In this document: in pieces, positions 39,101-63,360 of the stretch
How positions within the stretch are numbered: the stretch's first letter is position 1
How the letters are laid out: every line of letters begins with the position of its first letter
Source: Takakia lepidozioides
Lineage: Eukaryota; Plantae; Bryophyta
Assembly: GCA_030704615.1 (NCBI GenBank)
Contig: CM060734.1
Span: 49,910,001-49,974,000, forward strand
DNA length: 64,000 nucleotides
Direction: 5' to 3'
The notes under the pieces: model-generated
The model's input: only the letters and a program-made list of their open reading frames with translations
Told to the model about the DNA's origin: nothing
Database searches by the model: none
Program-made: the position numbers and the translations under genes

Positions 39101-39400
39101 ATTCTCGAAAGATGTCATTCATCATGTGTTGAAAAATTGCTGGAACATATGTAAGACCGAAAGACATAACACTGTATTCGAAATGTCCGTACCTTGTGCG
39201 AAAAACAGTCTTCCATTCGTCTCCTTCTTTTATTCGTAAATGTTGTAATCTCCTCTCAAGTCGATCTTTGTGAAAAAATTTGCTCGTCCAAGTTGTTCGA
39301 GGAGTCCGAAAATCAACGGTAGTGGGTAACGATTTTTTATAGTGACTTTGTTGAGCCCACGATAGTCCACACACATGCGTAACGATCCGTTCTTCTTTAT
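35542..39400 (-). mobile_element. Decayed, 5'-truncated Ty3/gypsy chromovirus (Tcn1-like): RT, RNase H, integrase, chromodomain, PPT and 3' LTR
   Basis: RT ([29 protein letters not shown]), RNase H (YTDHKNLEYF), integrase (HDLPAAGHFG...CDAC, SMDFITDLP, SDREPQF), HPVFHVSLL, and chromodomain EYEVDEVLDSR...YFIHWKDY...TWEP (~36940-36830). PPT AGAGGAGGGGGTGA at ~36185-36198. Many frameshifts and stops. Confidence 0.93.
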
Positions 39401-40050
39401 GTAAGTGACAATAGTTACTATGTTTAGGGTTCACTCAGACTTATTGTTTGAGACCAAGAAGGCTTGGCTTGGCTTATGTTATGTGTACATAGTTCTTCTC
39501 AAATGTGTCGATGAATGAAAGTTGCAGCTTCTCAATGGCTTTTGACGTCACATGAGGAAATGAGGTCACCTTTGTACAAGACAAAACGAATAACGAGTTG
39601 ATTGGAACGACACCCTCCTGACAATCTAGGAGGTCGCCTGGACCAGAAAAACCCGTGGTCAATTGAAGACATAGATGTAGTTTTAGAAAACAAAAATTCT
39701 AAGACCCAGCTTTCATTTGAACCCACTAAAAAGAAGCGTAGTAGCTTTTGATGTCCTTCTTCTTGCAGTTTCTTAGGCATCAATTTTATGTGGTTTTGAT
39801 TACGGGACAGTGCCCCCCTTCTTCATCTCCATGGCATGTTATTCAAAATGTTATTTTTTCCTGCTTATGTGTAAAATGCAGGGCTTCTGCCATTTGAATA
39901 TATAAGTGATTTCCATTTAGGGAGATATTTCAAATATACCATGGTCACAAATGGGGAATGACATGGGTGGGTTCCATTTCTATGTCAGATTTCATCACAT
40001 CTTTTTCGCTTTTTCTGTACTCTACAATTGAAACCCTAAATCACCCTTAA

Positions 40051-40688
40051 CCTCTAAACGCCTTTGGGGTTCGTCGACTTTTCCCAAAACAAATGACCCT
40101 TGCACAATAAAAAGAATTGTACTTTGTGGAAAATTTGGAATCTGGAAAATTCAACCAGACAATATGTACCCACCTACCCCCTGGATGCCCTGGCCAAATT
40201 TCAGGCCAATCAAATGAGACATGCAAAAATGCTACCATTGCATGTGGGGGCTTTTATTTGGTATATTTTCCAAAAAAAAAAAATACAAATAAAAACGGAT
40301 ATACTAGGTTTTCGGTTTTGGACGTTGGGTTGAAATTTGTTTGGCTTGGTGGAGACAACCTTTCATCCCAACTACATCTATCTTCAAACCAGCCCAACAC
40401 ATTCGAATTTGGAGCACATTGCACAACGTGGCACTTGGTCAAAGCAAGGGGGGTGAAGAATTGTCATATGAAGTATGAGACAAAAGTTGAATTCTCACAA
40501 GAGTCTCTCTGTTCTTTCTAGCAATGGAACTCTGACAAGAGTCTCTATCTCTCCTTTGAGAGATTGAGAGAGGCAGCAATTACTGCACAAAGCTATGAAT
40601 AAGAGGCAACAACAAGAAGATGCAATAACAACAAATGCAAGACATGAACAAAACAAAACAAGATAGGATTTGACGGCAACAGCAACCT
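40051..40688. mobile_element. Left part of a second piggyBac-like non-autonomous element, interrupted by the gypsy insertion (remainder probably ~53295-53600)
   Basis: TTAA followed by CCTCTAAACGCC resembles the 32830 terminus. Shared internal motifs include AATTT(G/C)AGGCCAATCA and CACTTGGTCAAA, and GTGCCAGG on the far side. No right TIR was found. Confidence 0.4.
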
Positions 40689-41015
40689 TGTCAAGTTATT
40701 TTACCACTAGTGTGAAACTAGCTAGGAAATAGCTATCTTTTACATATTGACATTTGGGATTGGCCCAAGTGTCAATCCAGGGGTCAAGGCAGATTTAGGC
40801 CCTGGAGTGGTTATCTTCACGGCAAGCGCGGGAGGCTCATCTTTCTCGAGTTGAGCCTCACTGCGCCTAGCTATGGCGCCGTAGTGTGGATTCCCCATGG
40901 CGTGGGGTGCACTTGGCTTGACTTGTATTTGAGTGATGAGGTTATATATGCATGAGTTTATGCTTCAGCTTTGTGAGCTCGCATGAGCTTGTGCTTGTAT
41001 TCTTCTTCTTTATCA
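40689..41015 (+). repeat. Terminal repeat segment A1 (327 bp; contains the presumed R-U5)
   Basis: Near-identical to 52257-52583 and 52775-53101; TGTCAAG...TTTATCA. Confidence 0.95.
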
Positions 41016-41027
41016 CTCAAGAAAGAT
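41016..41027 (+). promoter_or_regulatory. Putative self-priming primer binding site
   Basis: CTCAAGAAAGAT sits immediately after A1, lacks the TGG of a tRNA PBS, and is 11/12 complementary to ATCTTTCTCGAG at 40839-40850 inside A1. Confidence 0.6.
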
Positions 41028-42548
41028 CAGCTCGTATCTGTGAGTGCCAGATACGAGTTAGTTGTAGCACTTGTGGTTTTTGCTTGAGAATGAGAGAAAC
41101 CAAGTTGTTATGCAAGGAGCACCGTGGAGCTCTTAGTTGTTAGAAGCGGAGGCGATGTGGGTTACGAGGTGGTAGACATTGGCATTCGATCTTCAGCTTC
41201 AGAGATGAAAGCACCATGCTGCAGGTAATTCCAGAGCACCTTGATGATTCCAGATTGTGTACATGCATGAGCAAGCACGATTGGGAAGAGGACCAGTCAA
41301 GAGCAGGTTATAGTGGCTTTGGTGGCAAAGCTGAGAACTGGACTTGGGAATGCGAGCTTTCATTGTGTGAAGGATTGCAAGACCAAACGAAAGGGCTGAT
41401 TTTGCTTGGGGCAAATCAGTGCACTTTGTGGAGTATGGTGAGATTGGGTTTCAATCTCGAGCTTCAGCATTGAGAGGGCTCTTGTCATGGCAAGAGCAGG
41501 GCTGGAACAGGAGCTAAGAGGTGCGGCAAGGCCATGGAATGTGCACCTAGGGTTTCAGAGCTTGGAAGAAGAGTTCTTGCACCACAAGAGAAGTGTCTTG
41601 TGGCTGGAAATGTAAGCCTTAGGGTTTCAGGAGCTTGGCAAAGGCTATGGAGTGCTTAGTCTTGTCATAGAGAGCATCAAGGAGCCAAGGAGCCAAGATA
41701 GGGGGCTGATATCTCTTGTGTGAAGAGGTTGCATGTGTGGAGCATGTATTCAACTCATTGAAGCTTCCATCTTCAAGCTTGGAGGGCAAGCAAGGAAGAG
41801 GGAAGGGCTGACTTCCCTTATGTGAGGGCAATGTATGTGTGGAGCATGCTATCAGCCTGGTGAAGGCTTGCACTTTTAGGTGTGGGAGTGCAAGAAAGAA
41901 GGAAGGGGCTGGTTTCCCTGTAGGGCATGTAGAGCATGCTTTCAGCCTGCTGAAGCTTGTATTATCAGGTTTGTGGGTGCAAGAAATGAAGCAAAGGAGC
42001 TGATTCTCTTATGGTGAGAGTGGGGCATGTGTGGAGCATGCCTTCAGCCCATTGAGGATCTTGTTTTCAAGCCTTAGAGAGCTAGAACGGAAGGTCTAGG
42101 GCTGGTTTCCACTTGGAGTGAAAGAACAGCACTTGTAGGGCCTATGTGAGTTGGGGTTTCAACTTCAAGCTTGAAGGGAGCGCAACTCTTGAAGCAACAG
42201 GTGTAGAGGGCTGGAATAGGCTCTAAGACAGATGCTATGGCCATGAGGGAGTGCTTGAATGAGTGCTCACAAGGGCTGGGAACCAGCAGGGCTTGGTTGT
42301 TTGCCATTGAGTTTAGTGGCGTGTTTGGGGAGGCTAAGTGAGAAAGAAGGCTTGGTTTGTGGCAACCACCTCATGGCTTAGGGCTACTATGGTGGTGTGT
42401 GGGAGCCGAAAGAGCAAGGATACCTTGCTGATTTCCTCACAGCCACCATAGCTCGGTGGAAAGAAGCCTAGAGTCCAAGAGACACAAACCCTAGCTTGGC
42501 GTGGCTAAACCCCTTGGAGAAATGGCTAAACTGCCAGAGCGGCCATGT

Positions 42549-44230
42549 GTGGGGCTGTGACAGGCTGTGGCAAGCTGTGACGGGCTGTGACGGGCTGTGT
42601 CAGGCTGTGGCGAGCTGTGACGGGCGGTGACGGGCTGTAACAGGCCGTGCCTGAGGCCTGTGGGGCTGTGACGGGCTGTGACAGGCTGTGCCCATGGCCT
42701 TTGGGGCTGTGATGGGCTGTGAGGGGTTTGTGACAGGCCGTGCCTGAGGCCTTTGAGGCTGTGATGGGCTGTGATGGGCTGTGACAGGCTGTGCCCTGTG
42801 CCTGTGGGGCTGTGACGGGCTGTGTCAGGCTGTGACAGGCTGTGCCCAGTGGCCTTTGGGGCTGTGACGGGCTGTGACAGGCTGTGCCCTGAGGCCTGTG
42901 GGGCTGTGACAGGCTGTGACAGGCCGTGCCTGAGGCCTTTGAGGCTGTGACGGGCTGTGAGGGGCTGTGACAGGCCGTGCCTGAGGCCTTTGGGCTGTGA
43001 TGGGCTGTGCGGGGCTGTGACAGGCTGTGCCCTGAGGCCTGTGGGGCTGTGACGGGCTGTGACAGGCCGTGCCTGAGGCCTTTGAGGCTGTGCCGGGCTG
43101 TGAGGGGCTGTGACAGGCCGTGCCTGAGGCCTTTGGGGCTGTGACGGGCTGTGAGGGGCTGTGACAGGCCGTGCCTGAGGCCTTGAGGCTGTGACGGGCT
43201 GTGAGGGGCTGTGACAGGCCGTGCCTGAGGCCTTTGAGGCTGTGACGGGCTGTGAGGGGCTGTGACAGGCCGTGCCCATGGCCTTTGGGGCTGTGACGGG
43301 CTGAGAGGGGCTGTGACAAGCCGTGCCTGAGGCCTTTGAGGCTGTGACGGGCTGTGACGGGCTGTGACAGGCCGTGCCCATGGCCTTTGGGGCTGTGACG
43401 GGCTGTGAGGGGCTGTGACAGGCCGTGCCTGAGGCCTTTGGGGCTGTGACGGGCTGTGAGGGGCTGTGACAGGCCGATCCTGAGGCCTTTGAGGCTGTGA
43501 CGGGCTGTGAGGGGCTGTGACAGGCCGTGCCCATGGCCTTTGGGGCTGTGACGGGCTGTGAGGGGCTGTGACAGGCCGTGCCTGAGGCCTTTGGGGCTGT
43601 GACGGGCTGTGAGGGGCTGTGACAGGCCGATCCTGAGGCCTTTGAGGCTGTGACGGGCTGTGAGGGGCTGTGACAGGCCGTGCCCATGGCCTTTGGGGCT
43701 GTGACGGGCTGTGAGGGGCTGTGACAGGCCGTGCCTGAGGCCTGTGGGGCTGTGACGGGCTGTGACAGGCTGTGCCCATGGCCTTGGGGCTTGTGGGGCT
43801 GTGTGGGCTGTGAGGGGCTGTGACAGGCCGTGCCTGAGGCCTTTGAGGCTGTGATGGGCTATGACAGGCTGTGCCCTGTGCCCTGTGGGGCTGTGACGGG
43901 CTGTGACAGGCTGTGCCCTGTGCCCTGTGGGGCTGTGACGGGCTGTGTCAGGCTGTGACAGGCTGTGCCTAGTGGCCTTTGGGGCTGTGACGGGCTGTGC
44001 GGGGCTGTGACAGGCTGTGCCCTGAGGCCTGTGGGGGCTGTGACAGGCTGTGCCCATGGCCTTTGGGGCTGTGACGGGCTGTGACAGGCTGTGCCCATGG
44101 CCTTTTTGGGCTGTGACGGGCTGTGAGGGGCTGTGACAGGCTGTGCCTGAGGCCTTTGAGGCTGTGACGAGCTGTGAGGGGCTGTGACAGGCTGTGCCCA
44201 GTGGCCTGTGGGACTGTGACGGCTGTGACC
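42549..44230. repeat. 1.7-kb GC-rich tandem array inside the element leader: 10-bp GGGCTGTGAC monomers in 41/51-bp higher-order units
   Basis: Directly visible, e.g. GAGGCTGTGACGGGCTGTGAGGGGCTGTGACAGGCCGTGCCTGAGGCCTTT repeated; minus-strand ORFs show the matching 17-aa periodicity. Confidence 0.95.
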
Positions 44231-44724
44231 AGTGAGCTGTGTGGGCCTGTGCTGGTCTGTGGTGGCCCGTGTTGACCTGTGGATGGCCTGTGCTGACTCG
44301 TGGAGGCACTGGTGGACTAAGGACTGGCATGTGGTCTGGAAGGCCGAATTTTGAAGCTCGTGGAGGGCGGTTTGAGGAGTATCTTCATGATATTCCCATG
44401 GTCATGCAAGTTCAGGTGTAGGCTATGTTAGGAACTTAGTATTCCAAACCATAAGCCGCAACAGGTTCTCTACCTGGTTACCTTGTGGAGAGGGGGTTAG
44501 GGCATGTTCATGACCGGTTGAGTGTCAACACGGAGGTGCCACTAGTTGCTGGGGACAGTGCCGGTTCGAGCACTAGCGATACTAGTGGGTACACGAGACG
44601 AGGTGTGCGGTTTAGGCCACCTTCACCTCCTGTGTCTTCCACGGAAGGTTCTGATTCGGATTGTGAATCAGGAGGGCTCATACCGGCGGTGCAAGTTGTT
44701 TCTTTGCCATTGTTGTGGGACACA

Positions 44725-46431
44725 ATGGAGGAGATGTATGGAGCTACCAAGGGGCCACGAAGGTACTCTGGGGCGGTGGGCACCATTGAGTTGGATGATT
44801 TTATCCAAGAGTTTGATAGTTGGTGTGATTTGCAGCAAATGCGCAATCCACAACTATTTACGCCGTTCATGGCATGGAAAGGGCTGTTTCAGCACCTTGA
44901 GGGGCCGCCTATGGATGATTACCATGAGTTCAGGCGGGGGCATGAGGTTGAGATCGAGGAGTGGAGGATGTACTGGTCACCCGACTATGTCTCCATCACT
45001 AGGGGCACTAGAGCCACGAGGGCAGTGGCTACACCTGCCGCTGCACCGGCAGCTTCAGCAAGTAGCAGTGGGACTGGTGGTACAGTAGCTACGACATCCA
45101 CCCAAGCCACTACCGCACCAGCACTAGCACCCGTGCCTGCCTTCAACCCTGTTGTGGAGTTCTTCGAAGAGTTGAGAGGGAACTACCAAGGGGTGAGGAC
45201 AGAGAAGTTGCGGAGCTTGCAAGAGTTCCAACGGAAGCCGACCGAGAGCTTGAGGGAGGCTTTCACTCGCATGAGGCGCTTGATAAATGTAACCCAAGGG
45301 GTTACGGAAGCTCAGGCAGTCCAATTCTGGTATGGGATATTGGACAAGGAGCTGAGGAGAAGGGTGCGGGATGCAACTCTCCTACAAGCGGCCCAACCCA
45401 CCTTAGCAAATGTGTTTTTGCTGGCAGAGCGGATAGAGCTCAACATGGTGGAGGAACGAGTGGTCATGGTGGGATTTGCTAAGGAGACACCACGGGGTAG
45501 TGGTGCTCCTAGCCAACCACTACCTCAACGTGCTCAAGGCAACAAGGGGGCTCAGGTGAAGCTCAGGGAAGGGCAGAGAGGACCTCAGATGCAGGGGTCT
45601 CTCCCTTCATTTGCTGGCCAACAACGGGCGGATGTGGTGTGCTGGACATGTGGAGGACCCCATGTCAAGAAGGATTGCCCAGAGGGAGGCAAAGGGTCGG
45701 CACATGCACAGCCTGCACAGTTGCAGTGTGGGCATTGTGGCAAGCACGGGCATGGAGAGGCCCAGTGTTATAGTTTGCATCCTGAGTTGCGCCCAGGCCA
45801 GTTCCAAGGGAACAATGGTGGCCGGGGGCGAGGTGGAGCAGCCCAGAGAGGACGAGGTGGCCAGCCACGAGGTGCAGGCCAAGGGCAAGCTCAACGTGGC
45901 CAAGGACGCGGAGGTCAGGGTGTTGACCAAGGCATGGCCAACCGGCTTCAGCAGCTAGAGCAGAGGCTCGCTGCCATGGCTACAGCTCAGGTGGTACCGG
46001 CTCTAAGGCCGGATGGTCCACCTCCTGCTCCTGAGGGAGGAGATATGGGAGGCATGGGATTCATGTGTGGAGCAGCACTACCACTAGTGCAGGTGGAGTC
46101 TGCTGCAGCCGTGACTCGAGGAGCAGCACGAGTTCCTGAGCCACGAGGTGCAGAGGTGGAGTTGGATCCACAGCGTGGGGAGGCAAGCCGTCAGGCTAGG
46201 CTTCCTCAGTCATTCACATTGGCGGAGACAGTGTCGACGCCATCCATGGCACCTAGTTCTCGCCCGACTGTTACCGAGGCGGAGGTTACTATGCCATTGG
46301 GGAGAGCTACACGGGTAGCACCACTACCTAGTGTTGCCAAGGCTACGGCAGCTAGTGTGCTGTTAGGAGCGGCCACATCTGTGTGCCAGGCTCCATTGTT
46401 CTCGGCTACCATGATTGCGACGCCGGGGTAA
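44725..46431 (+). CDS. gag: Gag with two CCHC zinc knuckles and an RG/Q-rich tail
   Basis: ORF 44485-46431, first ATG at 44725. Gag-like core (LQEFQRKPTESLREAFTRMRRL...AVQFWYGILDKELR), knuckles CWTCGGPHVKKDC and CGHCGKHGHGEAQC. Confidence 0.85.
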   Translation: MEEMYGATKGPRRYSGAVGTIELDDFIQEFDSWCDLQQMRNPQLFTPFMAWKGLFQHLEGPPMDDYHEFRRGHEVEIEEWRMYWSPDYVSITRGTRATRAVATPAAAPAASASSSGTGGTVATTSTQATTAPALAPVPAFNPVVEFFEELRGNYQGVRTEKLRSLQEFQRKPTESLREAFTRMRRLINVTQGVTEAQAVQFWYGILDKELRRRVRDATLLQAAQPTLANVFLLAERIELNMVEERVVMVGFAKETPRGSGAPSQPLPQRAQGNKGAQVKLREGQRGPQMQGSLPSFAGQQRADVVCWTCGGPHVKKDCPEGGKGSAHAQPAQLQCGHCGKHGHGEAQCYSLHPELRPGQFQGNNGGRGRGGAAQRGRGGQPRGAGQGQAQRGQGRGGQGVDQGMANRLQQLEQRLAAMATAQVVPALRPDGPPPAPEGGDMGGMGFMCGAALPLVQVESAAAVTRGAARVPEPRGAEVELDPQRGEASRQARLPQSFTLAETVSTPSMAPSSRPTVTEAEVTMPLGRATRVAPLPSVAKATAASVLLGAATSVCQAPLFSATMIATPG

Positions 46432-47060
46432 GACCAGCTGAGGTGTTCAGGCTGGCAGCTACACTCTGTGAGAGTGGGGAGGTTACTTCATCTTCTGCGG
46501 AGATAGTGGGAGGTGTAGTGCCGGAGGGATCCTCGGATTTGAGGGTCAAGACTGCCACGGCGGCGCCATGGCAAGCTGCAGCTGCCAGGTTGATGGAGCT
46601 GCCAGCTAGGCCAGCCATTGAGCGCGCCATGGTGACACCTGGAGTTGTCATGTTAGACAACCAGGATGGCATTTTCTGTTTGAGTGGACCGGCAGGCAAG
46701 AGGTACCGGCCACTGCGAGTCTTGTTGGACTCGGGAGCTCAGCCACTGATGCTGGGCAGAGCTGCTATTGCAGGCTTGGGCCTCACGGAGGCGGATATGG
46801 AGCCTTGTCCTTTCCAGATACAGACGTCTCTGGGAGGATCGGAGCAGGCTCGGGGCATGACACGGCATGAGTTGGCTATCAGACTACGGCCGGATCACCC
46901 TACAGATGGCTCAGTGATGCGAGCCAAGGCCATTGTGACAGACGCAGTCTCATACGATGTCCTGGTTGGTGGGGCAGTGTTGTACCCCATGGGCTTCACC
47001 CTGGATTTTTGGGAGGAGTCAGCTTCCTATAGGCCTGCATGGCAGTCAGGGGAGGGCCGG
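46418..47060 (+). CDS. Retroviral-type aspartic protease region of the polyprotein
   Basis: RVLLDSGAQPLMLG catalytic motif and downstream YDVLVG in ORF 46383-47864, reached by a -1 shift from gag near 46420. Confidence 0.85.
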
Positions 47061-47441
47061 CGTGTGCAGCTCCCTGTGACGTTCATAGGAGGAGTTGCGG
47101 TTGCCCAGCGAGGCAAGATGCCGACACTAGCAGCATTCACAGCGGCAGTGAGTTGGCCTAGAGAGTTGCTTGAGGGCAATGCTCATTCAGAGGATGTACC
47201 ACCTCCGGGAGAGCAGGATGACATGTATGGTATGGCGGAGTTGCCTACCATGGTTGCTCAGACTCCATTGTGGGGCACGAGCAAGGATTTGCAGCGGGAT
47301 GCTGATCGACGGGTGCAACAAGCCTGGGTGGAGGCTTTTGTACCGTCAGGAGAGGAGGAGAGTGTGGGGATTGCACCAGGACCACCTCAATTGTCTCCAT
47401 TGGACACCACACCTATTGTGTGGCAGTCTCCGGATGAAGGC

Positions 47442-48390
47442 ATTTGTCTTCTGGACTTGTTTGGCGGGATCAGCACCGGATTGGCTGCTGTGTTACAGGC
47501 AGGTGTACGAGTTCGGCGTTACCTGTATGTGGAGAGGGATGAGACTGCACGACGCGTTTCACTTCGCCATGTTGCTCAGTTGGTGCAGCGGTACCCTGAG
47601 TTGTTGTCGGTGTCTGCAATTCGTGGATATCAGCAGGCCTTGCCAGCAGACATTTCGTTGCTGGGGGCGCAGGATTTGGAGCGGGTTGGCTCCATTGATC
47701 TGGTAGTGGCAGGTTGGCCCTGCCAAGGCATTCATCAGCCGGGCATGGCAATGGATTGCGAGACTCGAGGTCGGGTCTGTTTTGGGAGATGGTGCGGGTT
47801 TTGCGCCACTTGCAGCTTCATCAAGCTGTATCTCCAGCATACATCTTGGAGAATGTGCCACTGATGGGCGATTCTCGGGCCAGGGTGATGGCCAGTGTGC
47901 ATCAAGTCCGGTCGTGGCTTGGGTCAGCAGTGTTGCTAGATGCAGCTACAGTGGGGTCACGGGCTCATCGTCCACGGCTATGGTGGACTAACATGATGCC
48001 ACCCGCACTGCTCAAGCGTGCATTTGATGGGGTGCAGCGGCCAGCACATCTCACAGTGGATAACATTCTGGACACAGGGAGGCAGTCTCAACGTGTGAGA
48101 CACGATGACCGTTCGCCTTTGGCAGTGGTCAACAAGGTGGGTCAACCACGAGCAGCATTACCTACACTGCTCAGCTTCCCAGGATCGCATGCTTTCCGGG
48201 ATAGTGGACCTGGCCTCCTGTGGGATGCTCAGTTGCAGCAGTTAGTGGAGCCTAATGCTGACGAGCGTGAGCGGGCAATGGGTTTTACCACTGGTACCAC
48301 GGCGGTGTCGTCTCTTTCTGAGGCATCACGTCGTCAAGTGTTGGGGCAAGCAATGGATCTCAATTGCTTGACCTGGATTATCAGCTTGGC
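47442..48390 (+). CDS. C5 cytosine DNA methyltransferase domain (DNMT3-like) embedded in the pol polyprotein
   Basis: Motifs in canonical order: I LLDLFGGIST, II YVERD, III ADI, IV IDLVVAGWPCQG(H)SSAG with the catalytic PC, V GLRDSRSGLF, VI YILENV, VII DAA, VIII AHRPRLWWTN, IX ERERAMGF, X RRQVLGQAMDL. A one-base frameshift at ~47728 follows PCQ. Confidence 0.93.
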
Positions 48391-48688
48391 TCTAGCTGAG
48401 CAACGCAGAGTGCGGAATACACTTCCCTCAATGGTCTCTCTGCCTACCGAGACGGTACAGGCAGTGAGTGGGGGCGAGCATATGAGGACCACGGGGTGCA
48501 TGCATCCATGGCACACGTGGGAGGTGCTCGAGGTTCAGAGGGAGTTGGCAGCCAAGGCGGCTGTGATGGATGAGGTTGGGGATTCTTCTCGAGTTGAGGA
48601 GGTCCTCAAGGATGAGATGATGGGGCAGGATGATGCCTTGTCATTGACTGAGCAGGTAGGGAGTACTGCTCAAGAGGTTGCAGCATAG

Positions 48689-49740
48689 CAACCACGGGAC
48701 GCGTCCTCTACCTCTAAGCCCACTGGACTTAAGGTTGTAGTTACGGAGGACAATTGGGAGCCTGACATTGGACCCATTGTCACCGGAGGAGAGAGACGAC
48801 GTATACGGCGGTTCCTGAGGGCTTACAGGAATTGCTTTGCCTTCAGTTTGAAGGACTTGGGAGCACTGAAGGGTCAAGAGATCCGTATTGAGTTGGCCAC
48901 TGACACGCCAATCTTTCGGAGACCCTATAGATACAGTGACATGGAGAGGTCTTTGATTCAGATGAGGACTCAAGATCTCTGGGAGGCAGGTTTGGTGGAG
49001 CTCTCTGGTGGAGAGTATGCTTCAGCCACAGTGATGCCAGCCAAGAAGGATGTCTATGGCAATTGGACGGAGAGACGTATGTGCGGTGATTACCGGCCTG
49101 TAAATCGTCAGACCAAGTCCGATAAGTATGCCATGCCAACACCAGAGGAGATCTTTGATGCCATCGGGCATGCTAAGGCCTTTAGCACTTTGGATTTACG
49201 ATCCGGATATCACCAGTTGCCAATCAAGGAGGCGGACAAGCAGAAGACGGCATTCTGGGGGATCAATGAGCACGGCAAGGATTGCCTATATCAGTGGCGG
49301 TTCTTACCATTTGGGCTTAAGAATGCTCCTGCAGAGTTTCAGAGAGTCATGGATAGGATTCTAGCAGGGGTGGACTTTGCTCGGTGCTACATAGATGACA
49401 TCATCATCTTTAGTGTTACGATGGAGGAGCATGAGAGACACCTTCAGGTGGTATTGGAGCGCTTGAGAGCGCACGGATTGAAGTTGCATCCGGGGAAGTG
49501 CAAGTTTTTCCACAACCAGATTGAGTATCTGGGTCACATGATATATCCTGGAGGATTGGGGGTACAGCAGACTAAGGTAGAGGCCATTGCACAAATTCCA
49601 CGCCCCACGGATGTGAGCCGAGTTCGAGCTTTCATGGGGTTGGCAAACTATTATAGACGGTTTGTCAAGGGATTTAGTACCATTGCAAAGGCTCTAACCA
49701 AGCTGACCAAGGTGGACCAGGAGTGGCAGTGGAAGATGAG
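48689..49740 (+). CDS. Ty3/gypsy reverse transcriptase
   Basis: PIFRRPYR, RMCGDYRPVN, FSTLDLRSGYHQ, LPFGLKNAPAEFQR, YIDDIIIF, YLGH. Same frame as the DNMT C-half, separated only by a TAG at 48686-48688. Confidence 0.95.
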
Positions 49741-51822
49741 CAGGAACGAGCTTTTCAAGAGCTCAAGGCGAGGTTGACCTCGGCGCCTATCTTGAGACGA
49801 CCTATCAGGGGGCGTCCCTTTCAGCTGCATACGGATTGGAGCATGCTGGGGCTTGGAGCGGTGCTCACACAGGTGGATGATGAGGGAAGAGAGTTCGTAG
49901 TGGCTTACGCTAGCCGCTCGAACAACGCTGCAGAGGCTAAGTACAGCTCATATGAGGGAGAGTGCTTAGCTGCAGTGTGGGCCGTGGCACACTTCAGGTG
50001 CTATCTATACGGCAATCTTTTCACCCTTGTCACGGATCACCAGCCACTCAAGTGGTTGATGGAGTCAGACAAGCTTACGGGGAAGCTTGCACGGTGGGCA
50101 CTTATACTCCAGGAGTATGACTTTCAGGTTGTGCATCGACCGGGTTTGGTCAATCGGGATGCGGATGGATTGAGTCGCAATCCATGCATGAGCCAGCAGG
50201 ATGACACTGGAGCTCGGTGGCATGGTGAGACGGACGAGGAGATGGTGCCGGGATGGCACGCATCTGCATTTTTGTGTATCTTGGCATCGGGAGGTCAGAT
50301 TGGACCTACAACAGGGATGACTGTAGACGGAGTGTCTGAGGACCCTGAGGCTAGTGATGAGCTAGGTGGTGCCAGAGATATACATGAGGATTCGGCTGTG
50401 TTGGACTACCTCCGCACGGGAGACACGGCAGCCATTGTGACTGCCAGGGAGAGGGATCGGATCCTGCAACGAGCCAAGAGGTTCAAGTGGGAGGGGATAC
50501 ACCTACTTCGAGTGTGGGAGGGTGGTCGGGTGAGGATTGTGCCTCACCCCACACAGCGTGCACGGTTAGTGCGGCATGCCCATGAGGAGTTGGGGCATTT
50601 TGGAGTGCGACGCACTCACAGTTTACTGCAGGGGCAGTATTGGTGGCGTGGTATGCATACAGAGGTGCAACAGTTTGTGGCTAGGTGCATGGTGTGTGAC
50701 AGGGTGCGTGCTTCATTCAACGCCCCTACACCACAGTTGCATCCTTTACCTATCATGGGATTGGGCTACAGGTGGAGTCTTGACTTCGCAGGACCGTTGC
50801 CACTGACTATGCGCCACCACAGATATGTGTTGGTGATGGTGGAGCACTTCTCCAAGTGGATTGAGTTGGTTCCATTGCCTGACAAGGCTAGTGAGGGGGC
50901 TGCGTATGCATTCTTGGATCGTGTGCTTAGCCGATTTGGTGCTCCAGCTGAGGTACTCACGGACCAAGGGAGAGAGTTCTTGGGGGAGTTTCAGGCTTTG
51001 TGTGATAAAGCCTTGATAGACCACCGCACCACTTCTCGGGATCATCCTGAGGCCGATGGCTTAGCAGAGAGAGTTGTTCAGACGGTGAAGAGGGGTTTGC
51101 GCAAGTATGGCTTGCAGAAGGGACACCTAGGAGATTGGGATCTTCAGGTTCCTTGGTTAGCCATGGGCTACAGGTTCAGCAAACAAGCATCACTTGCCTC
51201 CTTCTCACCATATTTCCTTCTCTTTGGCCGAGAGCCGGATTTGCCTGCAGCCATTCGTAGGGACACTGCTCAAGTCCTTAACCTTGACGATCCGGACGTG
51301 TGGGTACGTGCATGTGATCAGCGTGCAGAGTTGTTCAAGAAAGTCATGCCCATGGCTTTTGAGAACCTTGCCATTGCACAGCACCGTGATACGTTGAGGT
51401 ATGCCACTATACGTGGTGGAGGATATCGTCCTGGGGTTCGGAGGTTTAGCCCTGGTGACTATGTTTATTTGCAGCAGACTGCTCCTACGACTCTGGATGT
51501 TACTGCAGGGCGTGTTATTCTGAGGGTTCGAGAGGTGTTGCCCTCAGGGGTCCTGATCTTAGAGGGTCGGGATGGCATGACTTGGAAAGACCATGTGCGT
51601 AATTGTGCGCCATGTCACTTTCCCAATGTCGATGGCAGAGTTGACCCAAACTTGGCAGTGGTACCTGCAGGTTTGAGGTGCATGCTTTGTGGGTCTGCCA
51701 AAGGGGCAGCCACCATGCTGGTGTGTGATCGGTGCTCAAGGGGTTGGCATATGGGATGCTTGACACCACCTCTTGAGAAGGTTCCTGACGGAGATTGGTT
51801 GTGTCCACACTGCTTGGGATAG
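49723..51822 (+). CDS. RNase H, DDE integrase and C-terminal PHD finger
   Basis: RNase H (LHTDWS, YASR, EGECLA, TDHQPL); integrase HHCC (HEELGHFG...CMVC) and D,D,E (SLDFAG, LTDQGREF, DGLAER); C4HC3 PHD CMLC...CDRC...WHMGC...WLCPHC at 51679-51813. Confidence 0.95.
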   Translation: MAVEDEQERAFQELKARLTSAPILRRPIRGRPFQLHTDWSMLGLGAVLTQVDDEGREFVVAYASRSNNAAEAKYSSYEGECLAAVWAVAHFRCYLYGNLFTLVTDHQPLKWLMESDKLTGKLARWALILQEYDFQVVHRPGLVNRDADGLSRNPCMSQQDDTGARWHGETDEEMVPGWHASAFLCILASGGQIGPTTGMTVDGVSEDPEASDELGGARDIHEDSAVLDYLRTGDTAAIVTARERDRILQRAKRFKWEGIHLLRVWEGGRVRIVPHPTQRARLVRHAHEELGHFGVRRTHSLLQGQYWWRGMHTEVQQFVARCMVCDRVRASFNAPTPQLHPLPIMGLGYRWSLDFAGPLPLTMRHHRYVLVMVEHFSKWIELVPLPDKASEGAAYAFLDRVLSRFGAPAEVLTDQGREFLGEFQALCDKALIDHRTTSRDHPEADGLAERVVQTVKRGLRKYGLQKGHLGDWDLQVPWLAMGYRFSKQASLASFSPYFLLFGREPDLPAAIRRDTAQVLNLDDPDVWVRACDQRAELFKKVMPMAFENLAIAQHRDTLRYATIRGGGYRPGVRRFSPGDYVYLQQTAPTTLDVTAGRVILRVREVLPSGVLILEGRDGMTWKDHVRNCAPCHFPNVDGRVDPNLAVVPAGLRCMLCGSAKGAATMLVCDRCSRGWHMGCLTPPLEKVPDGDWLCPHCLG

Positions 51823-52071
51823 TGGCAGTGGACATGACTGGAGGCAGCTAACAAGACATGGGAGGCCAAGCTCATAGGAGTCAATACATGAGATCCCAAG
51901 CTCAAGTTCACAGGTTGCAAGACGGCGACTAACGATGGGGCAACTCTTGCACCCGGCCTCTTGATCTATCGAGTTTGAGTGTAGTAGGGATAGTGGTGGA
52001 GGACTTAGTGAGGCTATGGTCACTATCACATCTTGTGGCTACCTGGACTTAGAGGGACCTAAGCACCAGCT

Positions 52072-52081
52072 AGGGGGGCGA
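52072..52081 (+). promoter_or_regulatory. Polypurine tract
   Basis: AGGGGGGCGA, then T, immediately before the TG start of repeat B1. Confidence 0.7.
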
Positions 52082-52082
52082 T

Positions 52083-53290
52083 TGTGTGGACTAGTGACTG
52101 CCATAGTGGGCAGCGTAGTGGCAGCCTAGTGACTGACTATAGCCTAGTGGTTGGACTAGTGGTAGACTAGTGGTATACTAGTGTGTGGTGTGCACATGTG
52201 TTGTGTGGTTTTGGACAGCGATGTAGTTGTGTAGCGATATGTATGCGCACGACAGCTGTCAAGTTATTTTACCACTAGTGTGAAACTAGCTAGGAAATAG
52301 CTATCTTTTACATATTGACATTTGGGATTGGCCCAAGTGTCAATCCAGGGGTCAAGGCAGATTTAGGCCCTGGAGTGGTTATCTTCACGGCAAGCGCGGG
52401 AGGCTCATCTTTCTCGAGTTGAGCCTCACCGCGCCTAGCTATGGCGCCGTAGTGTGGATTCCCCATGGCGTGGGGTGCACTTGGCTTGACTTGTATTTGA
52501 GTGATGAGGTTATATATGCATGAGTTTATGCTTCAGCTTTGTGAGCTCGCATGAGCTTGTGCTTGTATTCTTCTTCTTTATCATTGTGTGGACTAGTGAC
52601 TGCCATAGTGGGCAGCGTAGTGGCAGCCTAGTGACTGACTAGTTGTAGCCTAGTGGTTGGACTAGTGGCTGGACTAGTGGTAGACTAGTGGTATACTAGT
52701 GTGTGGTGTGCACATGTGTTGTGTGGTTTTGGACAGCGATGTAGTTGTGTAGCGATATGTATGCGCACGACAGCTGTCAAGTTATTTTACCACTAGTGTG
52801 AAACTAGCTAGGAAATAGCTATCTTTTACATATTGACATTTGAGATTGGCCCAAGTGTCAATCCAGGGGTCAAGGCAGATTTAGGCCCTGGAGTGGTTAT
52901 CTTCACGGCAAGCGCGGGAGGCTCATCTTTCTCGAGTTGAGCCTCACCGCGCCTAGCTATGGCGCCGTAGTGTGGATTCCCCATGGCGTGGGGTGCACTT
53001 GGCTTGACTTGTATTTGAGTGATGAGGTTATATATGCATGAGTTTATGCTTCAGCTTTGTGAGCTCGCATGAGCTTGTGCTTGTATTCTTCTTCTTTATC
53101 ATTGTGTGGACTAGTGACTGCCATAGTGGGCAGCGTAGTGGCAGCCTAGTGACTGACTAGTTGTAGCCTAGTGGTTGGACTAGTGGCTGGACTAGTGGTA
53201 GACTAGTGGTATACTAGTGTGTGGTGTGCACATGTGTTGTGTGGTTTTGGACAGCGATGTAGTTGTGTAGCGATATGTATGCGCACGACA
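52083..53290 (+). repeat. Right-end repeat block B1(52083-52254)-GC-A2(52257-52583)-T-B2(52585-52772)-GC-A3(52775-53101)-T-B3(53103-53290)
   Basis: Read directly. A copies are 327 bp; B2 and B3 are 188 bp and B1 is 172 bp. The B/A junction is the palindrome GACAGCTGTC. Confidence 0.95.
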
Positions 53291-54159
53291 ACCTGTAGCA
53301 AGGAATCACAAACAACCTACAAAGGACAACAAGCGCGTGAGGCTACGTGAGAGAGAAGAAAACGAATGGCCATACGTGAAGAAAACACGTGGGATCTGCC
53401 CAAACTAGATCCCCTCTCATTAAACCCTAATTGCAGACGCGTTACATGGAATGTGGCCAATCGGAGAAGAGATGCACTTGGATACTCTAGGCATGCTTAT
53501 AATTTCTAGGAATTTGGGATAGATCTACATAAGTTACAACAACGAATTTGGCTCAAATGAGCCGTATTAAGTGCCAGGATCCAATGACAGCTCCAAGCGC
53601 ACCTGGGTGAATCCCTCCAAGAATTAAAGAGGCGCTACTGGCTTAGATAGAATATTGTAAGGGGAGCCCCCACGGAATCGCCCCTTGCGAAGGGGCGCAA
53701 AAAAGACGTCCCTTCACAAGGGGCAATCCAGTTTCACAGCGCCCCCACCTAACACCTTTGTCTTTTCCTACAGGCCGGCAACCTTATAGAATACTATTGA
53801 TTTCCATCCACAATAAGTTATATTTTAGGAGAGGGAATGATTTTTTACATCATCATCCAAAACTTAAATTAATTGTCATTTACTATGTCATGGGCCTACA
53901 TGGCAATTGGTGCCAAGATTTTTAGAGGGGTGAATGGAAAGGTGTCTATAGAACCACCCTTTCTCTTTTTATGGGGTGATTCCCTCATGGGGCGCTTGCT
54001 TCGGGGCGTTTGGGAGTGCCCATGGAACCTGGCACTAAATAAGGTATGCACAGCCTCTGTGTAATAATCTACTGCGTCGTATCTAATAATGTAATGCATG
54101 TGTTTATGACAGAGGCATACAGACCACCATGTTTTCAATATATTTTCTTTTGTTTTGGG

Positions 54160-54281: not shown

Positions 54282-54437
54282 CCTGTGAGCACAGCGTGGG
54301 CACGCTCACGTGAGCATGCTCACGGTTGTTAGGGTTGTATGTTTTTAAACCGCGGTCATAGGAATTACCTGTTTTGAGGCACGGTGCATTTTATAGGGTG
54401 CAGTTGCACCAAAACGATAAACTATCTGATCTATTTC

Positions 54438-54952
54438 AATTTCGCATTGAGAAAATAAAATTAAGTAGTAGTTTCGGGAGTGAGAGTTTTAATTTCGCAC
54501 TGAGAAAATAAAATTAAGTAGTAGTTTCGGGAGTGAGAGTTTTAATTTCGCACTAAGAAATTAAAATTAAGTAGGAGTTTCGGGAATGAGAGTTTTAATT
54601 TTGCACTGAGAAAATAATGTTAAGTAATAGTTTCGGGAGTGAGAGTTTTAATTTCGCACTGAGGAAATAACATTAAGTAGGAGTTTCGGGAGTGAGAGTT
54701 TTTATTTCCCACTTAGGAAATAATATTAAGTATGAGTCTCGGGAGGGAGAGTTTTAATTTCGCACTGAGAAAATAAAATTAAGATGGAGTTTCGGGAGTG
54801 AGAGTTTTTAATTTCGCAATGAGAAAATAAAATTAAGTAGGAGTTTCGGGGGTGAGAGTTCTAATTTCGCACTGAGAAAATAAAATTAAGTAGGAGTTTC
54901 GGGAGTGAGAGTTTTAATTTCGCACTGAGAAGATAATATTAAGTAGGAGTTT
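54438..54952. repeat. 53-bp tandem repeat array, left part (~9.7 units)
   Basis: Unit AATTTCGCACTGAGAAAATAAAATTAAGTAGGAGTTTCGGGAGTGAGAGTTTT starts at 54438, 54491, 54544 and onward; no unique spacers. Confidence 0.95.
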
Positions 54953-55212
54953 ATTTTTATTTTTTATTTTTTTTATTTTTAAATGTGAAATATATCATTT
55001 ATTCCAGAATTGAGGGGAAAAAAATAAAACCCCTTTTGCACCATGAGGGCTACACACTGTAGTCAGTGAAGGGCGATCCATTGCCTGCTACTAAAGTGTA
55101 GCAGTGTGCTAAAAGAGAGCGAACCTCTCACAACAACCTAGCCCTGACCGAGAGACTTCTAAAAAGTTAAGCCTGCAGCTGAGATTATCGAGGAGCTAAT
55201 CTACAACTACAC

Positions 55213-58200
55213 TTAACGAAAATTTAGCCTGGAAGTAGTGGTGGGGTGCTTGACGTGTTTCCAGTTCACGTCTCTCTCAAATTCCGGCGAGGCCATGGAG
55301 TGGAGCTCTGAGGTCTCTCCAGCGCTGAGGGGGGAGAGCGTTCCAAATACAATGTTCCTGCTCGTTGCTTTGACGAATGACGCCATGGCAGGCCCACGTC
55401 GCCCTGAATGATGCATGGATTGCTGGCGCTTGCCTTGGAGTCCTGTGCAGTCTGCAACACATTTTGCCCAAGCTTTTTTCGACTCTGTTAAAAGATCTTT
55501 GTACACCATTGCCAACAAAGCTGAGGTACTGATTGTCTCTTTGCTAAAGGTCTTTTTACATCTAGCACGCCATAGGTGCCATAACGTAGAAGTGCGAAGA
55601 GTCTCGAAGACTGGACATGGAAAGGATCAGCCCTTGGTTGTTTTGTTGTAATTAAGTAGCAGATCCAGCGGGCCAATATTTGAGAGACTCCAATGTCTGT
55701 AGAATACCTTGATGAAGGGCCAGATTTTGGCTGGAGCTATACAGGTCAGATGGCAGTGCTCATGAGATTCAATGATACTCGAGGAGCAGCATCGACATAG
55801 AAGGGCTTCATGGAATTGCAGCCATTCTCCCACTTTTAGGGCTCTGTTTGCTACTTGCCATAAAAACGCTGAGATCTTGGCCGGCCTAATTTTTAGCCAG
55901 ATAGAAGACCAGATTGCTGACCAGTTCTCATTCAAGAAACCAAAGTGACTCCATTTGCTATTCCACTTAGTGGAGAGGGCTGGCTGTGTGTTAAGAGCCC
56001 TATAAGCCATCTTGGGGGTGTAGGTAAGAAGGGGTGATGCAGCTCGGCCAAAGGTCCATTCCCATTCCTTGGGGTCCAGCTGGAGGTCCGCCAGAGGTCT
56101 TCCCAGGATCCAAACAAATGTGGAGGTATTGACCCAGGACAGGACAGGTATGGTAAGAGGTGGTTGGGGATCAAACTCTTTGAACTTAGATGACCAGTTG
56201 CAAATTCTCACTGGGGTATGAATGAAACGGGGGAAGAGGGTTTGGGATTGCGAAACCAAGATCAGCACAAGAGTTCGGGATTTATATGGTAAGCAAACCC
56301 TAAGAAGTGAGTATCTGTGGCAAAAATCACCAATATGATGGTGAGCCTGTTGCTTATGACTCCTAATGTCCAGCAGTTTGTGGAGGGGGTCAGTGGTCCC
56401 GCCTGCAGCGACAGGGACCAGGTTTGAGGTATAGAATTTATGACCGCCTGTAGCCCGACCTTGGCTCTGATTGACCCCAGAATAGGGCAAATTGTGTCAA
56501 TATGCAGGAAGCCTGTAGGCGACCACAGGTGTTTTAGTTGACTGATGCCCCTGCTGTCCCAGGCAGACCACTTTTTTGCCAGCGATTTTTCAGATTGTGT
56601 GGGCATGTTGGTGTTCAAAAATAGGTGCTAGCGGAGGGTTTCCTCGAATGTTTCTGGCTCTTTTTTGCGGAGAAAAGGTCTCAGTGTAGCCCAAGCTTTC
56701 CAGATGACGTTCCAAAGGGACGATCCCACTATTTTGTGCTTGAATCCCTGTGTGATCCAGCGAATGGAGGGGTGCCATCTAGAGGTCTTTAGGGGACTTG
56801 CCATCACCAGATTACCCACCACCAAAAACAACCACCAACCACCTTCTAGGCCTAAGAATCTTGGCAGCCATTTTCCGAGGAGTGTTGTGATTTGGATTTC
56901 TGGGTCCAGAACCCCCAGTCCTCCCTGTTTTTTTGGCTGGCAGATGGTGCTGGTCCTTGAGGACCTGTTGTAGTTGTGGTGGAACTTCCACCAAGTGCTG
57001 GCCCTTGAGCATTCCCTGCTACTGGCCCCACTATATTCACAGTATTCCCAGCTCGAGTTGCACTACTTCCCACACTCCCTGTCCCCCCAAAGCTAGATCC
57101 AGGCTGCCCGCCTGATCCCCCTGAGCCGACACCTTCGTTGGCATGTGATCCAAGTGCTCCACTTGATCCAGGTCCAACCCAATCTGTCTCCAGGAGACCT
57201 GTGGCCTGACTTTTTGGCCCACTTTGCTAGCTCCCCAAATGAAATTCCGCAATAAGGCTTTGTATTCCCCAATTTGTCTTTTAGAAGGGCGCCATGATGT
57301 TGCGTAGAACCATAGGCCAGCTGAGAGAATTTGGTTGGCCACAAGTGCCCAACCTGTGATTGAGAGGAACTTAGAGCCCCAGAAAGTGAGGTTTCTTTTA
57401 ATCTTGGAAAGAATGGGTGCGAATCGTTGTTCATCGGTGATATCAAGCCCATAGGTGTATCCTAGCAACGTTGTCGTCTGGTTAGGTTGCAGCCATGTTA
57501 GGCCCCAGGCCTGGCCCCAAGAGGGCAGTTGTCCTAGAAGGGATTTGGATTTATCTCCAGCGAGGATGGCACAGGTTTTGTTCCAGTTGACCTTGAAACC
57601 GGAAGCTTCGCAGAACTTCCCCAAAGTTGCTGCAGTTCTGTCGAGGTTGGTCTGGCTTGCTTGCAACATAAGGAAAGTATCATCTACATACATGGCTTCC
57701 CTGATGTAAGCAGGCTGGTTAGTTATGTAGTTTGTGATTCTAAGACCCAAAATCTGTGTGTCTGCTTGTAGCATGTAACCAAGTGTGTCGGCGGCAATAA
57801 TGAAGAGGAAAGGAGCCACTGGGCAGCCTTGACGGACAGATCGAAACAAGTTGAATGGCATTGACACTGCACCGTTGATGATCACCCTGCTGGTTGACCC
57901 CTTCAATAGAATGCGCACCCATCGACAAAAGGAGGGAGGCACACCGATCTTGGCCAGGGTGCCCATGAGGAAAGGCCATTCTACCCTGTCAAACGCTTTC
58001 TCAAAGTCTAGAAGGATTAGGGCAATAGCCTGCTGGGTTTGAAGGGCATATTGGGGAAGCTCCTGTGCCAGAAGAAGATTATCCATGATATATCTTCCCT
58101 TAATAAAGCCCGAGTGGCTAGGTCTAATGATTGACGGGAGCAGAGGCTGAAGACGTAGAGCCAAGCATTTGGCTATAATCTTATAAGCAACATTGAGGAG

Positions 58201-59793
58201 GGTTATGGGCCTGTAGTTGCTTAAGTCCGTCCTGTCACCCTTTTTGAAAATCAGAGAGATGACTCCATGTGACATGCTCCCCAACATATGGTTCGCATGA
58301 AAGATGTGGTTGGCCGTGGCCCCAAAGTCAAGCGAGATGTCAGGCCACAACCTTTTGTAAAATTCCACCGGGACTCCATCTATCCTTGGACATTTCCCGT
58401 CTTTCAGCTTGGAAAGGGCCAGCTCAAGCTCTCCTTCTGAGAGAGGCCCTTCTAGAGCCTCGGCTATAGGTGGGGCAATGAGAAGAGGGGAGTGCGCCAG
58501 GCAAGCATCAAGTGTGTCTGCTTCTACAGGTCTGTCACTCATAAAGAGGGTCTGAAAGTGGCTGGCAGCGAATGAAGCCATGGGTTTGGGGTCTGTGAAT
58601 GTCAGTCCCAATGCCCTGTCAGCTAGTTCAGAAATTGTCTGCCCTGCCTTTCTAAGCCCGGTTTTTGCAAAGAAATACTTGGACATTTTTTCTCCCTTGG
58701 ATGACCAGTTAACACTTGCTGACATCGTAAGCTTCTGCTCCTGCAGGTCTTGGAAGAATTGCAAGTTTTGTTTTGCTTCCAGGTAGGTATTGTATCTTGA
58801 TCACAGCGGGGAGATTCCATTTTTCTTTGACAGACTGAGAGGCATTTGATGAGGGCCCTTACCCTCCTTTTCCTAGTGGCTGCAATCTCTCTACTCATCT
58901 GCTGACTGGCTGCCCCCACTGCTACGAGCTTGGTCATGAACCTATCTGAAGGGTTCTGGGAGGCCGCACCAGCCCGAGACCAGGCTGTCCGCAAGCCTTG
59001 TGCGAACTCCGGGATCTGTAACAGAGAGACATTCATTTTGTAAAGACCCTTGCCCCTTGGGCAAGTGTTTGGAATATCCAATGAAGCCTCAATGACGGCG
59101 TGATCAAAGCCGGGGTGGATGGGCTGTTGAGGTAGCCTCCGGGACCATTGAATGCAGTCCAAGGAGGCGTAGAATCTGTCCAATCTGGCCATCTGGAGAT
59201 CGGCGAGGGCTCTGTTATTTGACCAAGTGAAGACAGGGCCTGAGGGGGGCGGAGGCCCCCTGTTCACCATTTCTATTTCCACCATATTGTGGTTGAGGGT
59301 GAGGGAGTGCCAGTGTTGAGTCTCTGTCACGTCTGGGTTAAACTGACCAAGACCCCGTCTGTCGGTAGGAGACTCAACCATATTGAAGTCCCCTGCCAAC
59401 ATCCAGAAATCTATGTCCTGTTTTAATTTCATGTTGGTGTTTATGGACCCCCAGCCGGCCACCGTTGGCTGGGAGGTCTATGGCACAATACTGAACTCTA
59501 CCTGGAACCCAAGAGCCTTTTGAGACAATATACTGAAAGAGGGATGGGGAAACCAAGATGGCGGTGCCTCCTCTGGAACCTTTAGAAGTTGGTTTTCATA
59601 GGGAGTTTGCTCGTGGCCAGAGATTGTCTGAGAGTGAAGCGATTTTCCCTAGATCGATTTTGTGTTCTTGCAGGAAGAGAATTGCATCTTTCCGAAGATA
59701 AGGGGTAAGAAAATTCTTGACGCTAGCGTGCTTTGGGGAAGCATTATCCGCCCCAAAGCCCCTGATGTTCCAATAAGCCATGTCAATCAACAT
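55213..59793 (-). pseudogene. LINE ORF2 (APE endonuclease, RT, zf-RVT), split by several frameshifts
   Basis: WNIRG, FLQEHK, LAGDFN, FTWSN, ARLDRFY, FDH; NYRPITLLN, LLDFEKAFDRV, SVRQGCP, YVDD; KISAFLWQ...CRCC...ESHEHCHLTC. Confidence 0.92.
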
Positions 59794-60255
59794 GGGGATG
59801 GAAGGCAAGGCTGAGATGATCAATCTCATTTGATGGCCTCTGACTTAAACACTTGAATTTAACCCTCTTATCAGAGGGGAGGAGGCTGTTGACCCAAACG
59901 TAAGGGCTGGGAGGTGAGGGAGGTCTTTTTAGGATTTGAACCATGATGAGGTGGGAGGTATCCACATGAGAATTTGGAATTATCTGATCTGGGTGCGGGG
60001 TTGTTGCCAAACAAGAGGGATTTTGGGAAAGTTTTTTGAAAAAGGCTGAGTTGCTTGTGCTAAGGATGGGAGGGTGATAGAGGTCAGAGAGGTAAGAGAG
60101 GTCCGAGGGTGATGCATCTATAGGCAGGCTGATAGCCGGGAGGGTTTTCCTGGCGGAATGCCTAGCATCAGCAGAGGGGCGGATACATAGAACCCAACAT
60201 CTCTTCCTATCCTTTGAGTCAGCCTGGAACAGAAAGAATGGCAGGGGCTGGGGGC

Positions 60256-63049: not shown

Positions 63050-63360
63050 TCATTGATATCAGCCGGCAACCGAGAGGGGGGAAGCAAAGTTAAGGGGCTG
63101 AGGCGGCGGAACACGCACGAAATGATGAATGAGACAAGGCAGGTATAGGATGAACCGAAGGGATGTCGAGGTAGTCACCAAAAGATCAGCGAAAGAGGCT
63201 TAAATGTATTTAGAAAATCATACAAACCAAGTGTTTAAAGCATGGACTCCATTTGCTTCCGGGGAGGCCCTGCTTCAGCTGGCGATCGGTAGAGAGAGAC
63301 CACATGAGAGAGACGAAGTGACCATTGGGCCTCGCTCTCACCGCGAAACGCGGAGCCCCC

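Follow-up and report, generated by a model that had tools for sequence, protein, structure and literature searches.

A PHD finger and a DNMT3-like methyltransferase in a Ty3/gypsy retrotransposon of Takakia lepidozioides, with a conserved stop codon between them

Retrotransposons that carry PHD fingers have been described, with a possible role of the finger in targeting (PMC9940879, PMC6673714, PMC8557442, bioRxiv 10.1101/2021.11.30.470311), and the gypsy element KnitGypsy-Dnmt3 of Klebsormidium nitens has a DNMT3-like DNA methyltransferase (DNMT) domain in Pol and DIRS-like A-coding-B-A-B repeats (PMC5890265). We describe a Ty3/gypsy element in 64,000 nucleotides of the bryophyte Takakia lepidozioides (GCA_030704615.1, contig CM060734.1, positions 49,910,001 to 49,974,000, forward strand; hereafter the window, with positions counted from its first letter). 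Its domains follow in the order gag, protease, DNMT, reverse transcriptase (RT), RNase H, integrase and PHD, and by its DNMT3-like domain, its repeats and its RT clade it belongs with KnitGypsy-Dnmt3. PHD retrotransposons, DNMT3-gypsy elements and elements joining a reader with a methyltransferase have each been published already; what appears to be new here is the combination, together with a conserved stop codon between DNMT and RT and a palindromic repeat junction. In the literature searched, whose coverage of subscription journals and theses is thin, we found no C-terminal integrase PHD joined to Gypsy-DNMT3, no such stop and no such junction. The available text of PMC5890265 does not mention a PHD, and in it we found no junction palindrome, self-priming or readthrough; its Fig. 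4c, like the supplements of preprints, may show a PHD.

A preliminary description of this DNA had a complete C4HC3 PHD finger closing the open reading frame, and that is what we find. All eight zinc ligands are present at the spacing C-x2-C-x11-C-x2-C-x4-H-x2-C-x14-C-x2-C, the Pfam PHD match covers the whole profile with a score above the gathering threshold (E 1e-10), and the stop codon (51820-22) comes two residues after the finger. An AlphaFold model of the last 160 residues of the integrase frame, made from an input alignment of 29 rows, contains in order a helix, an SH3-like barrel and the PHD finger, with a predicted local distance difference test score (pLDDT) of about 90 over the finger. 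The best fold match of the finger is the PHD of ATXR5 (PHD-H3; Z 9.8, root-mean-square deviation 1.3 Å, 52 residues), the third is the ORC1b PHD with unmodified H3, and the leading PDB sequence matches include CHD4, PHD1 of KDM5B and of KDM5A, PHF12, ATXR5, DPF3, BHC80 and BAZ2A. The modelled barrel resembles SH3, Tudor and KOW folds, including the C-terminal domain (CTD) of foamy virus integrase (Z 6.6), and the linker between it and the finger is short.

The finger is a real PHD and is found family-wide. Our family loci are the best 79 of 416 metagenome loci chosen by integrase patterns, many of them degraded or replicate copies of a few families. Of 67 testable loci, 59 have a PHD match behind the integrase tail and the other eight have remnants, so that the finger is kept in most family copies; its absence from most of them is what the preliminary description had said would count against its idea. 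Protein searches gave 13/15 and 35/39, counts that are biased because the query included the PHD, and the locus count is fairer. Compared with 10 related loci, the ratio of nonsynonymous to synonymous polymorphism (pN/pS) is 0.34 for the PHD and 0.20-0.31 for the other domains, which indicates that the finger is under purifying selection. Some relatives have long tails (P0003, P0005, P0031, P0046, P0047, P0166), with extra, often degenerate domains behind the PHD; we take these to be Tudor-like and amino-methyltransferase-like, on characteristic motifs, weak Pfam D12 matches and Atlas matches below 0.9. Two Marchantia polymorpha gene models annotated as PHD proteins (P0016, P0018) are fragments of this retrotransposon family, and a member labelled uncultured cyanobacterium (P0220, CAA9586175.1) is likely plant DNA in a metagenome bin.

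What might such a finger read? On balance we lean towards the view that the PHD of KnitGypsy-Dnmt3-type integrases binds the free H3 N-terminus (Ala1-Arg2) and anchors the integration complex on nucleosomes, promoters marked by H3K4me3 probably being only mildly disfavoured. In KDM5B, L325, D328, P347, G349 and W351 bind H3 A1 and R2 (PMC4225485), and D334 of UHRF1 is the counterpart R2-binding residue (PMC3214078). When its residues are mapped on KDM5B PHD1 by alignment, our PHD has the equivalents of all five, and the D328 equivalent is kept in 44 of the 46 family PHDs compared. The cage-tryptophan position, two residues before the zinc-binding His, is aromatic in none of the 46 (Gly in this copy), and cage-based reading of H3K4me3 or H3K9me is therefore unlikely. 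The aromatic-cage residues of PHDs that read H3K4me3 are named in PMC4225485.

Several observations weigh against histone binding by this finger. The equivalents of KDM5B D308 (which contacts K4) and E321 (T3) are both Ala in this copy, and single mutations at these positions cost KDM5B 6- to 12-fold (PMC4225485). Across the family the D308 equivalent, before the first Cys, is acidic in 11 of 46 PHDs, while at the E321 equivalent 1 of 17 short-tailed and 19 of 29 long-tailed members have an acid, and acidic loop residues average 0.8 in the former versus 2.3 in the latter. Binding may therefore be weak or lost in the short-tailed branch. The finger is also dispensable in at least one branch, because P0077 and P0288, two relatives that carry the DNMT, possess the whole integrase tail and no PHD. 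These losses of acidic contacts, and the short linker to the SH3 tail, could mean that the PHD no longer reads histones here and has a structural or protein-interaction role in the intasome, the particle or nuclear import. We regard such a role as unlikely, as the H3 A1/R2 surface (L, D, P-x-G-x-W) has been kept together with the zinc ligands, and the UHRF1 PHD binds H3 mainly via R2 with little K4 selectivity (PMC3214078). Given the retained A1/R2 residues, the lost K4 acid and the UHRF1 precedent, we expect the finger to tether the complex to nucleosomes and to disfavour H3K4me3 mildly at most.

Steering of integration by the PHD is plausible and is our best guess, an idea already in print (PMC9940879, PMC6673714), because the finger is conserved, resembles readers of the unmodified H3 tail and occupies the place of the chromovirus targeting domain. 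A stricter version would have it take over the function of a chromodomain that a chromovirus ancestor lost, and send copies sharply into heterochromatin. The preliminary description wrote of the PHD replacing the chromodomain: the position after the integrase tail is indeed the same, whereas evolutionary replacement is neither shown nor rejected by our RT-RNase H tree (72 of 133 rows after dereplication; IQ-TREE, LG+G4, quick search), which included no named reference lineages. In that tree the element falls in a 22-row clade with Klebsormidium nitens (P0015) and Haematococcus lacustris proteins (SH-like approximate likelihood ratio test, SH-aLRT, 100), and four chromodomain-bearing rows fall in another group of 12 rows. 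In approximately unbiased (AU) tests, joining the family with the chromodomain-bearing group was not rejected (p-AU 0.56), nor was joining it with the pair that holds the neighbouring chromovirus-like element of the window (36 log units worse, p-AU 0.14), so the RT phylogeny that the preliminary description called for yields a separate clade that may lie inside or outside the chromoviruses.

These tree results and the shared position are compatible with a chromodomain stand-in, as are the window's richness in other elements and self-priming, which Tcn1 has as well (83% in REXdb; PMC6317226). Against it stand the separate clade and the length of the target-site duplication, 4 bp in all three elements with both ends readable and 5 bp in Tcn1 and Chlamyvir (REXdb, PMC6317226). 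No chromodomain was found in any family protein, nor in-sense in the 79 loci, with a small local profile. Within our element there is no Pfam Chromo match, the PHD being followed by the stop, and the same local profile finds only the neighbouring element, which does carry a chromodomain as the preliminary description said, though a degraded one. The 50 fold matches listed for the model include no chromodomain fold, which tells little either way. A finger with no methyl-lysine cage would not be expected to read H3K9me in the manner of a chromodomain. Taken together, we find the stand-in improbable and continue to favour a tether to the H3 N-terminus.

The DNMT lies in the same element as the PHD, as the preliminary description had it, in the form of a DNMT3-like domain upstream: all 16 PDB matches of its second half are DNMT3A. 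It is about 3.3 kb away, with RT, RNase H and integrase in between. The same description saw a single polyprotein and a reader-plus-writer unit in the manner of DNMT3A, and here our findings part from it, as a conserved in-frame TAG separates gag-protease-DNMT from RT-integrase-PHD. The TAG (48686-88) is followed by CAA CCA and fits stop-CARYYA, the plant readthrough consensus (PMC5397192). At the equivalent site 10 of 26 loci have TAG or TAA followed by CAR and an 11th has TAG (together L003, L005, L006, L009, L011, L012, L013, L020, L040, L047 and L073), and one divergent family has the full readthrough consensus in different letters. In four public runs 48684-95 has no listed variant, against 27 variable positions elsewhere in the 241. 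Nearly all long RT-bearing proteins checked (41/43) have no DNMT motif and start 198-297 residues before YxDD, which fits a break at the stop site. We reject the reading of the TAG as a lesion of a dead copy, given its recurrence in related loci, its invariance in the runs and the RT-bearing proteins with no DNMT motif.

In the most economical account, most ribosomes would stop at the TAG, yielding Gag-protease-DNMT, and a minority would read through and add RT-RNase H-integrase-PHD; the protease would then free DNMT and integrase-PHD as separate proteins. The main target of the abundant DNMT would most plausibly be cDNA of the element itself inside the particle, as has been proposed (PMC5890265), and not chromatin chosen by the PHD. 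Some findings fit this poorly: most relatives have stop-CAA-CCY and not the full CARYYA, there is no stop between DNMT and RT in a second subfamily and in P0002, P0015 and P0133, and a KnitGypsy DNMT construct from K. nitens was inactive in yeast, a result its authors called inconclusive (PMC5890265). The ratio of observed to expected CpG in the element (0.46-0.55, against a window background of 0.45) is uninformative on self-methylation.

It is also conceivable that reader and writer do form one unit, in which the PHD, like ADD in animal DNMT3A, brings the DNMT3 to chromatin without H3K4 methylation, with methylation of insertion sites or of host chromatin as the outcome. The DNMT is, after all, DNMT3-like, a deep clade has retained the pair (in 27 of 30 testable loci a DNMT lies between protease and RNase H), and P0002 and P0005 have uninterrupted frames from DNMT to PHD. 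The DNMT occupies two positions in the clade, between protease and RT in our element, P0002, P0015 and P0133 (the branch with Klebsormidium) and between RNase H and integrase in P0001, P0003-P0006 and P0008-P0013 (the branch with the Haematococcus protein), so that in the long-tailed branch it adjoins integrase-PHD. Set against this are the conserved stop in our subfamily, the three domains and the distance between DNMT and PHD, the differing DNMT position and the loss of each domain without the other: P0007 and P0037 have the PHD and no DNMT, and P0077 and P0288 the reverse. Processing of Ty3/gypsy polyproteins is moreover expected to part DNMT from integrase-PHD. We give the reader-plus-writer unit very little credence, and a single reader-writer polyprotein in this subfamily is unlikely. 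Because the conserved stop lies between the two domains and relatives have lost either one alone, PHD and DNMT probably work as separate proteins. From the conserved stop one would expect DNMT to be made in large excess over integrase, in keeping with methylation of the cDNA of the element itself, and the stop offers a handle on the question of what retrotransposon DNMTs do (PMC5890265).

The termini are unusual as well. Repeats are laid out as A-internal-B-A-B-A-B, one unit more than A-coding-B-A-B. In 6 of 6 elements the stretch following A can pair with a site within A, matching at 11-14 of 14 bases; the sequences involved differ between families, and the region 40835-41031 of our element folds into a long hairpin. 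A perfect 10-bp inverted repeat (41030-41056) lies just downstream of the putative priming site. At the B/A junction the strict palindrome GACAnnTGTC occurs in 16 of 56 related 3' regions (L003, L020, L039, L041, L073 and others) versus 2 of 253 control segments. We used only this strict pattern and dropped a degenerate one that matched 96 of the 253 controls; the A/B-like repeat pair of L078 and L079 is a different repeat and was left out of the terminus analysis. The priming signals, with a G-run ahead of B1 as the second of them, mark B+A as the long terminal repeat (LTR), whereas an integrated copy has A as its first repeat and B as its last. The termini thus read as circularly permuted LTRs, probably opened at the palindrome, of an element that primes itself. 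Reverse transcription would give [B-A]-internal-[B-A] cDNA, which would form a circle; integrase would open the palindrome GACA-GC-TGTC, and opening a 2-LTR circle there with a 2-nt stagger would give insertions of the form A...B-A-B with CA ends. Foamy virus integrase is known to cleave a palindromic 2-LTR junction (PMC1180852).

Other lineages fit the termini less well. The non-chromoviruses Phygy and Selgy of REXdb have a tRNA-Trp or tRNA-Ala primer site, and Phygy an NCGN target (PMC6317226); here there is a self-complementary priming site instead, and a central CG in 1 of 16 right-flank tetramers. Nor is this a DIRS or PAT element, as it has an rve (DDE) integrase, not a tyrosine recombinase, and a target-site duplication.

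The three copies of A show 1-2 differences over 326 positions, which makes the insertion a young one. Besides the in-frame TAG, three frame changes interrupt its gag-pol, near 46425, 47727 and 49731. Other copies in the public runs differ in length at all three sites, which is why we read these changes as lesions of this copy or assembly errors. The family is clearly very large: in one public run 132,792 contig records map to the window, and summed depth over the coding region is about four orders above that of a contig on the unique flank, a figure that is not a copy number. In host runs coverage is dense over each of the PHD, DNMT, RT and integrase bins. One run (X12), guessed to be RNA, covers parts of the element and may be DNA. 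Among named proteins, those of liverworts come closest (Marchantia, 76-80%; Calypogeia, 75%). All features are collected in Table 1, in which the zinc-knuckle and protease motifs are presumed assignments from known patterns. The neighbouring chromovirus-like element has a CpG observed/expected ratio of 1.01 on the stretch counted, versus a background of 0.45.

Table 1. Features of the window
Feature	Position	Strand	Remarks
Second RT-bearing frame	3906-5789	+	
Neighbouring degraded chromovirus-like gypsy element	36700-39434 (approximate start)	-	SH3_Tf2-1 and broken chromodomain
Target-site duplication ACCT, 4 bp	40685..40688	.	repeated at 53291-53294
Ty3/gypsy element	40689-53290		12.6 kb; starts TGTC, ends GACA
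Terminal repeat A1	40689..41015	+	TGTC start, CA end
Putative self-priming site	41016..41031	+	complementary to 40835-40850 inside A1, 14/16
G+C-rich tandem array, 5' leader of the element	42500..44400	+	10/42/51-nt units
Gag and aspartic protease	44725..47100	+	two zinc-knuckle-like motifs (45640, 45727), DSG at 46728; frame change ~46425
DNMT3-like C5 cytosine methyltransferase	47451..48376	+	Pfam PF00145; split by frame change in this copy
Conserved in-frame TAG between DNMT and RT	48686..48694	+	stop-CARYYA context; putative readthrough
RT frame	48689..49777	+	YIDD at 49388; frame change towards RNase H in this copy
RNase H, integrase zinc-binding domain, DDE core, CTD, PHD	49678..51822	+	one 714-codon frame
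SH3-like beta-barrel integrase CTD, directly upstream of PHD	51433..51633 (limits approximate)	+	fold match of model residues 32-98
C4HC3 PHD finger, integrase C-terminus	51679..51813	+	Pfam PF00628; PDB sequence and fold matches
G-rich polypurine tract, directly before B1	52073..52080	+	
3' repeat array B1-A2-B2-A3-B3	52081..53290	+	element end GACA
B/A junction palindromes GACA-GC-TGTC	52251-52260, 52769-52778		
53-bp tandem repeat, both sides of LINE-like element	54381-55027, 63313-63587		
Broken LINE-like element	55627-62209	-	endonuclease-like and RT frames

Seen as a whole, these features might define a so far unclassified Ty3/gypsy lineage of green plants, from chlorophyte algae to land plants, with self-primed reverse transcription, a leaky-stop DNMT3 at Gag level that methylates cDNA in the particle, obligate integration from 2-LTR circles that integrase opens at a palindrome within them, and chromatin selected with the guidance of the PHD; in some algal branches the PHD would be followed by a Tudor-like module and by a second methyltransferase, of the amino type. 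We offer this composite picture only tentatively, as a possibility that we doubt more than we believe. Such a lineage is probably under-annotated in plant genomes, as LTR finders expect two equal terminal repeats, and with permuted ends these elements would be an example from nature of a DDE integrase acting from circles. PHD-guided integration has been proposed for retrotransposons and we found no test of the idea in the literature searched; a young and very abundant family offers a clean domain for assays and a large number of insertion sites for mapping.

How does the element compare with known systems? In fold and A1/R2-binding residues its finger resembles PHDs that read the H3 N-terminus (KDM5B PHD1, UHRF1, ATXR5, BAZ2A); unlike KDM5B PHD1, the PHD of this copy has no acids of the D308/E321 type. 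With foamy virus it would share a DDE integrase that opens a circle at a palindrome to give processed ends; there, however, the palindrome is the end-to-end junction, whereas here it lies inside the priming-defined repeat unit, hence the permuted LTRs. The chromoviruses Tcn1, Chlamyvir and MAGGY (PMC6317226) have the same Ty3/gypsy order and a chromatin reader after the integrase tail, and Tcn1 primes itself; our element differs from them in its PHD in place of a chromodomain, its DNMT, its shorter duplication, its permuted LTRs and its separate RT clade. Among Chlamydomonas elements, Gypsy-7a_cRei is a gypsy element with a PHD, for which insertion targeting has been proposed, but its order is RNase H, PHD, integrase and it is described with no DNMT (PMC9940879); P0200, with the order RT-PHD-integrase, falls outside our clade. 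REM1 has a truncated, reverse-frame integrase with a chromodomain (via PMC2774666). EpiLTRs and DAM-LTRs (bioRxiv 10.64898/2026.05.21.726589) likewise join a histone reader with DNA methyltransferases in LTR elements, but theirs are a chromodomain, DAM and a DNMT4-related enzyme, and the authors set them apart from streptophyte Gypsy-DNMT3. The closest system is KnitGypsy-Dnmt3, with which our element shares the gypsy order protease-RT-RNase H-integrase, a DNMT3-like domain in pol, repeats of the A-coding-B-A-B type and the RT clade. The K. nitens protein KFL_009030040 (P0015), which from species and domains is presumably one of the elements of PMC5890265, has the same protease-DNMT-RT order; it differs in having no stop between DNMT and RT, and is partial, ending before the PHD position. 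Our element differs from KnitGypsy-Dnmt3 in that it resides in a land plant and is present at high copy number.

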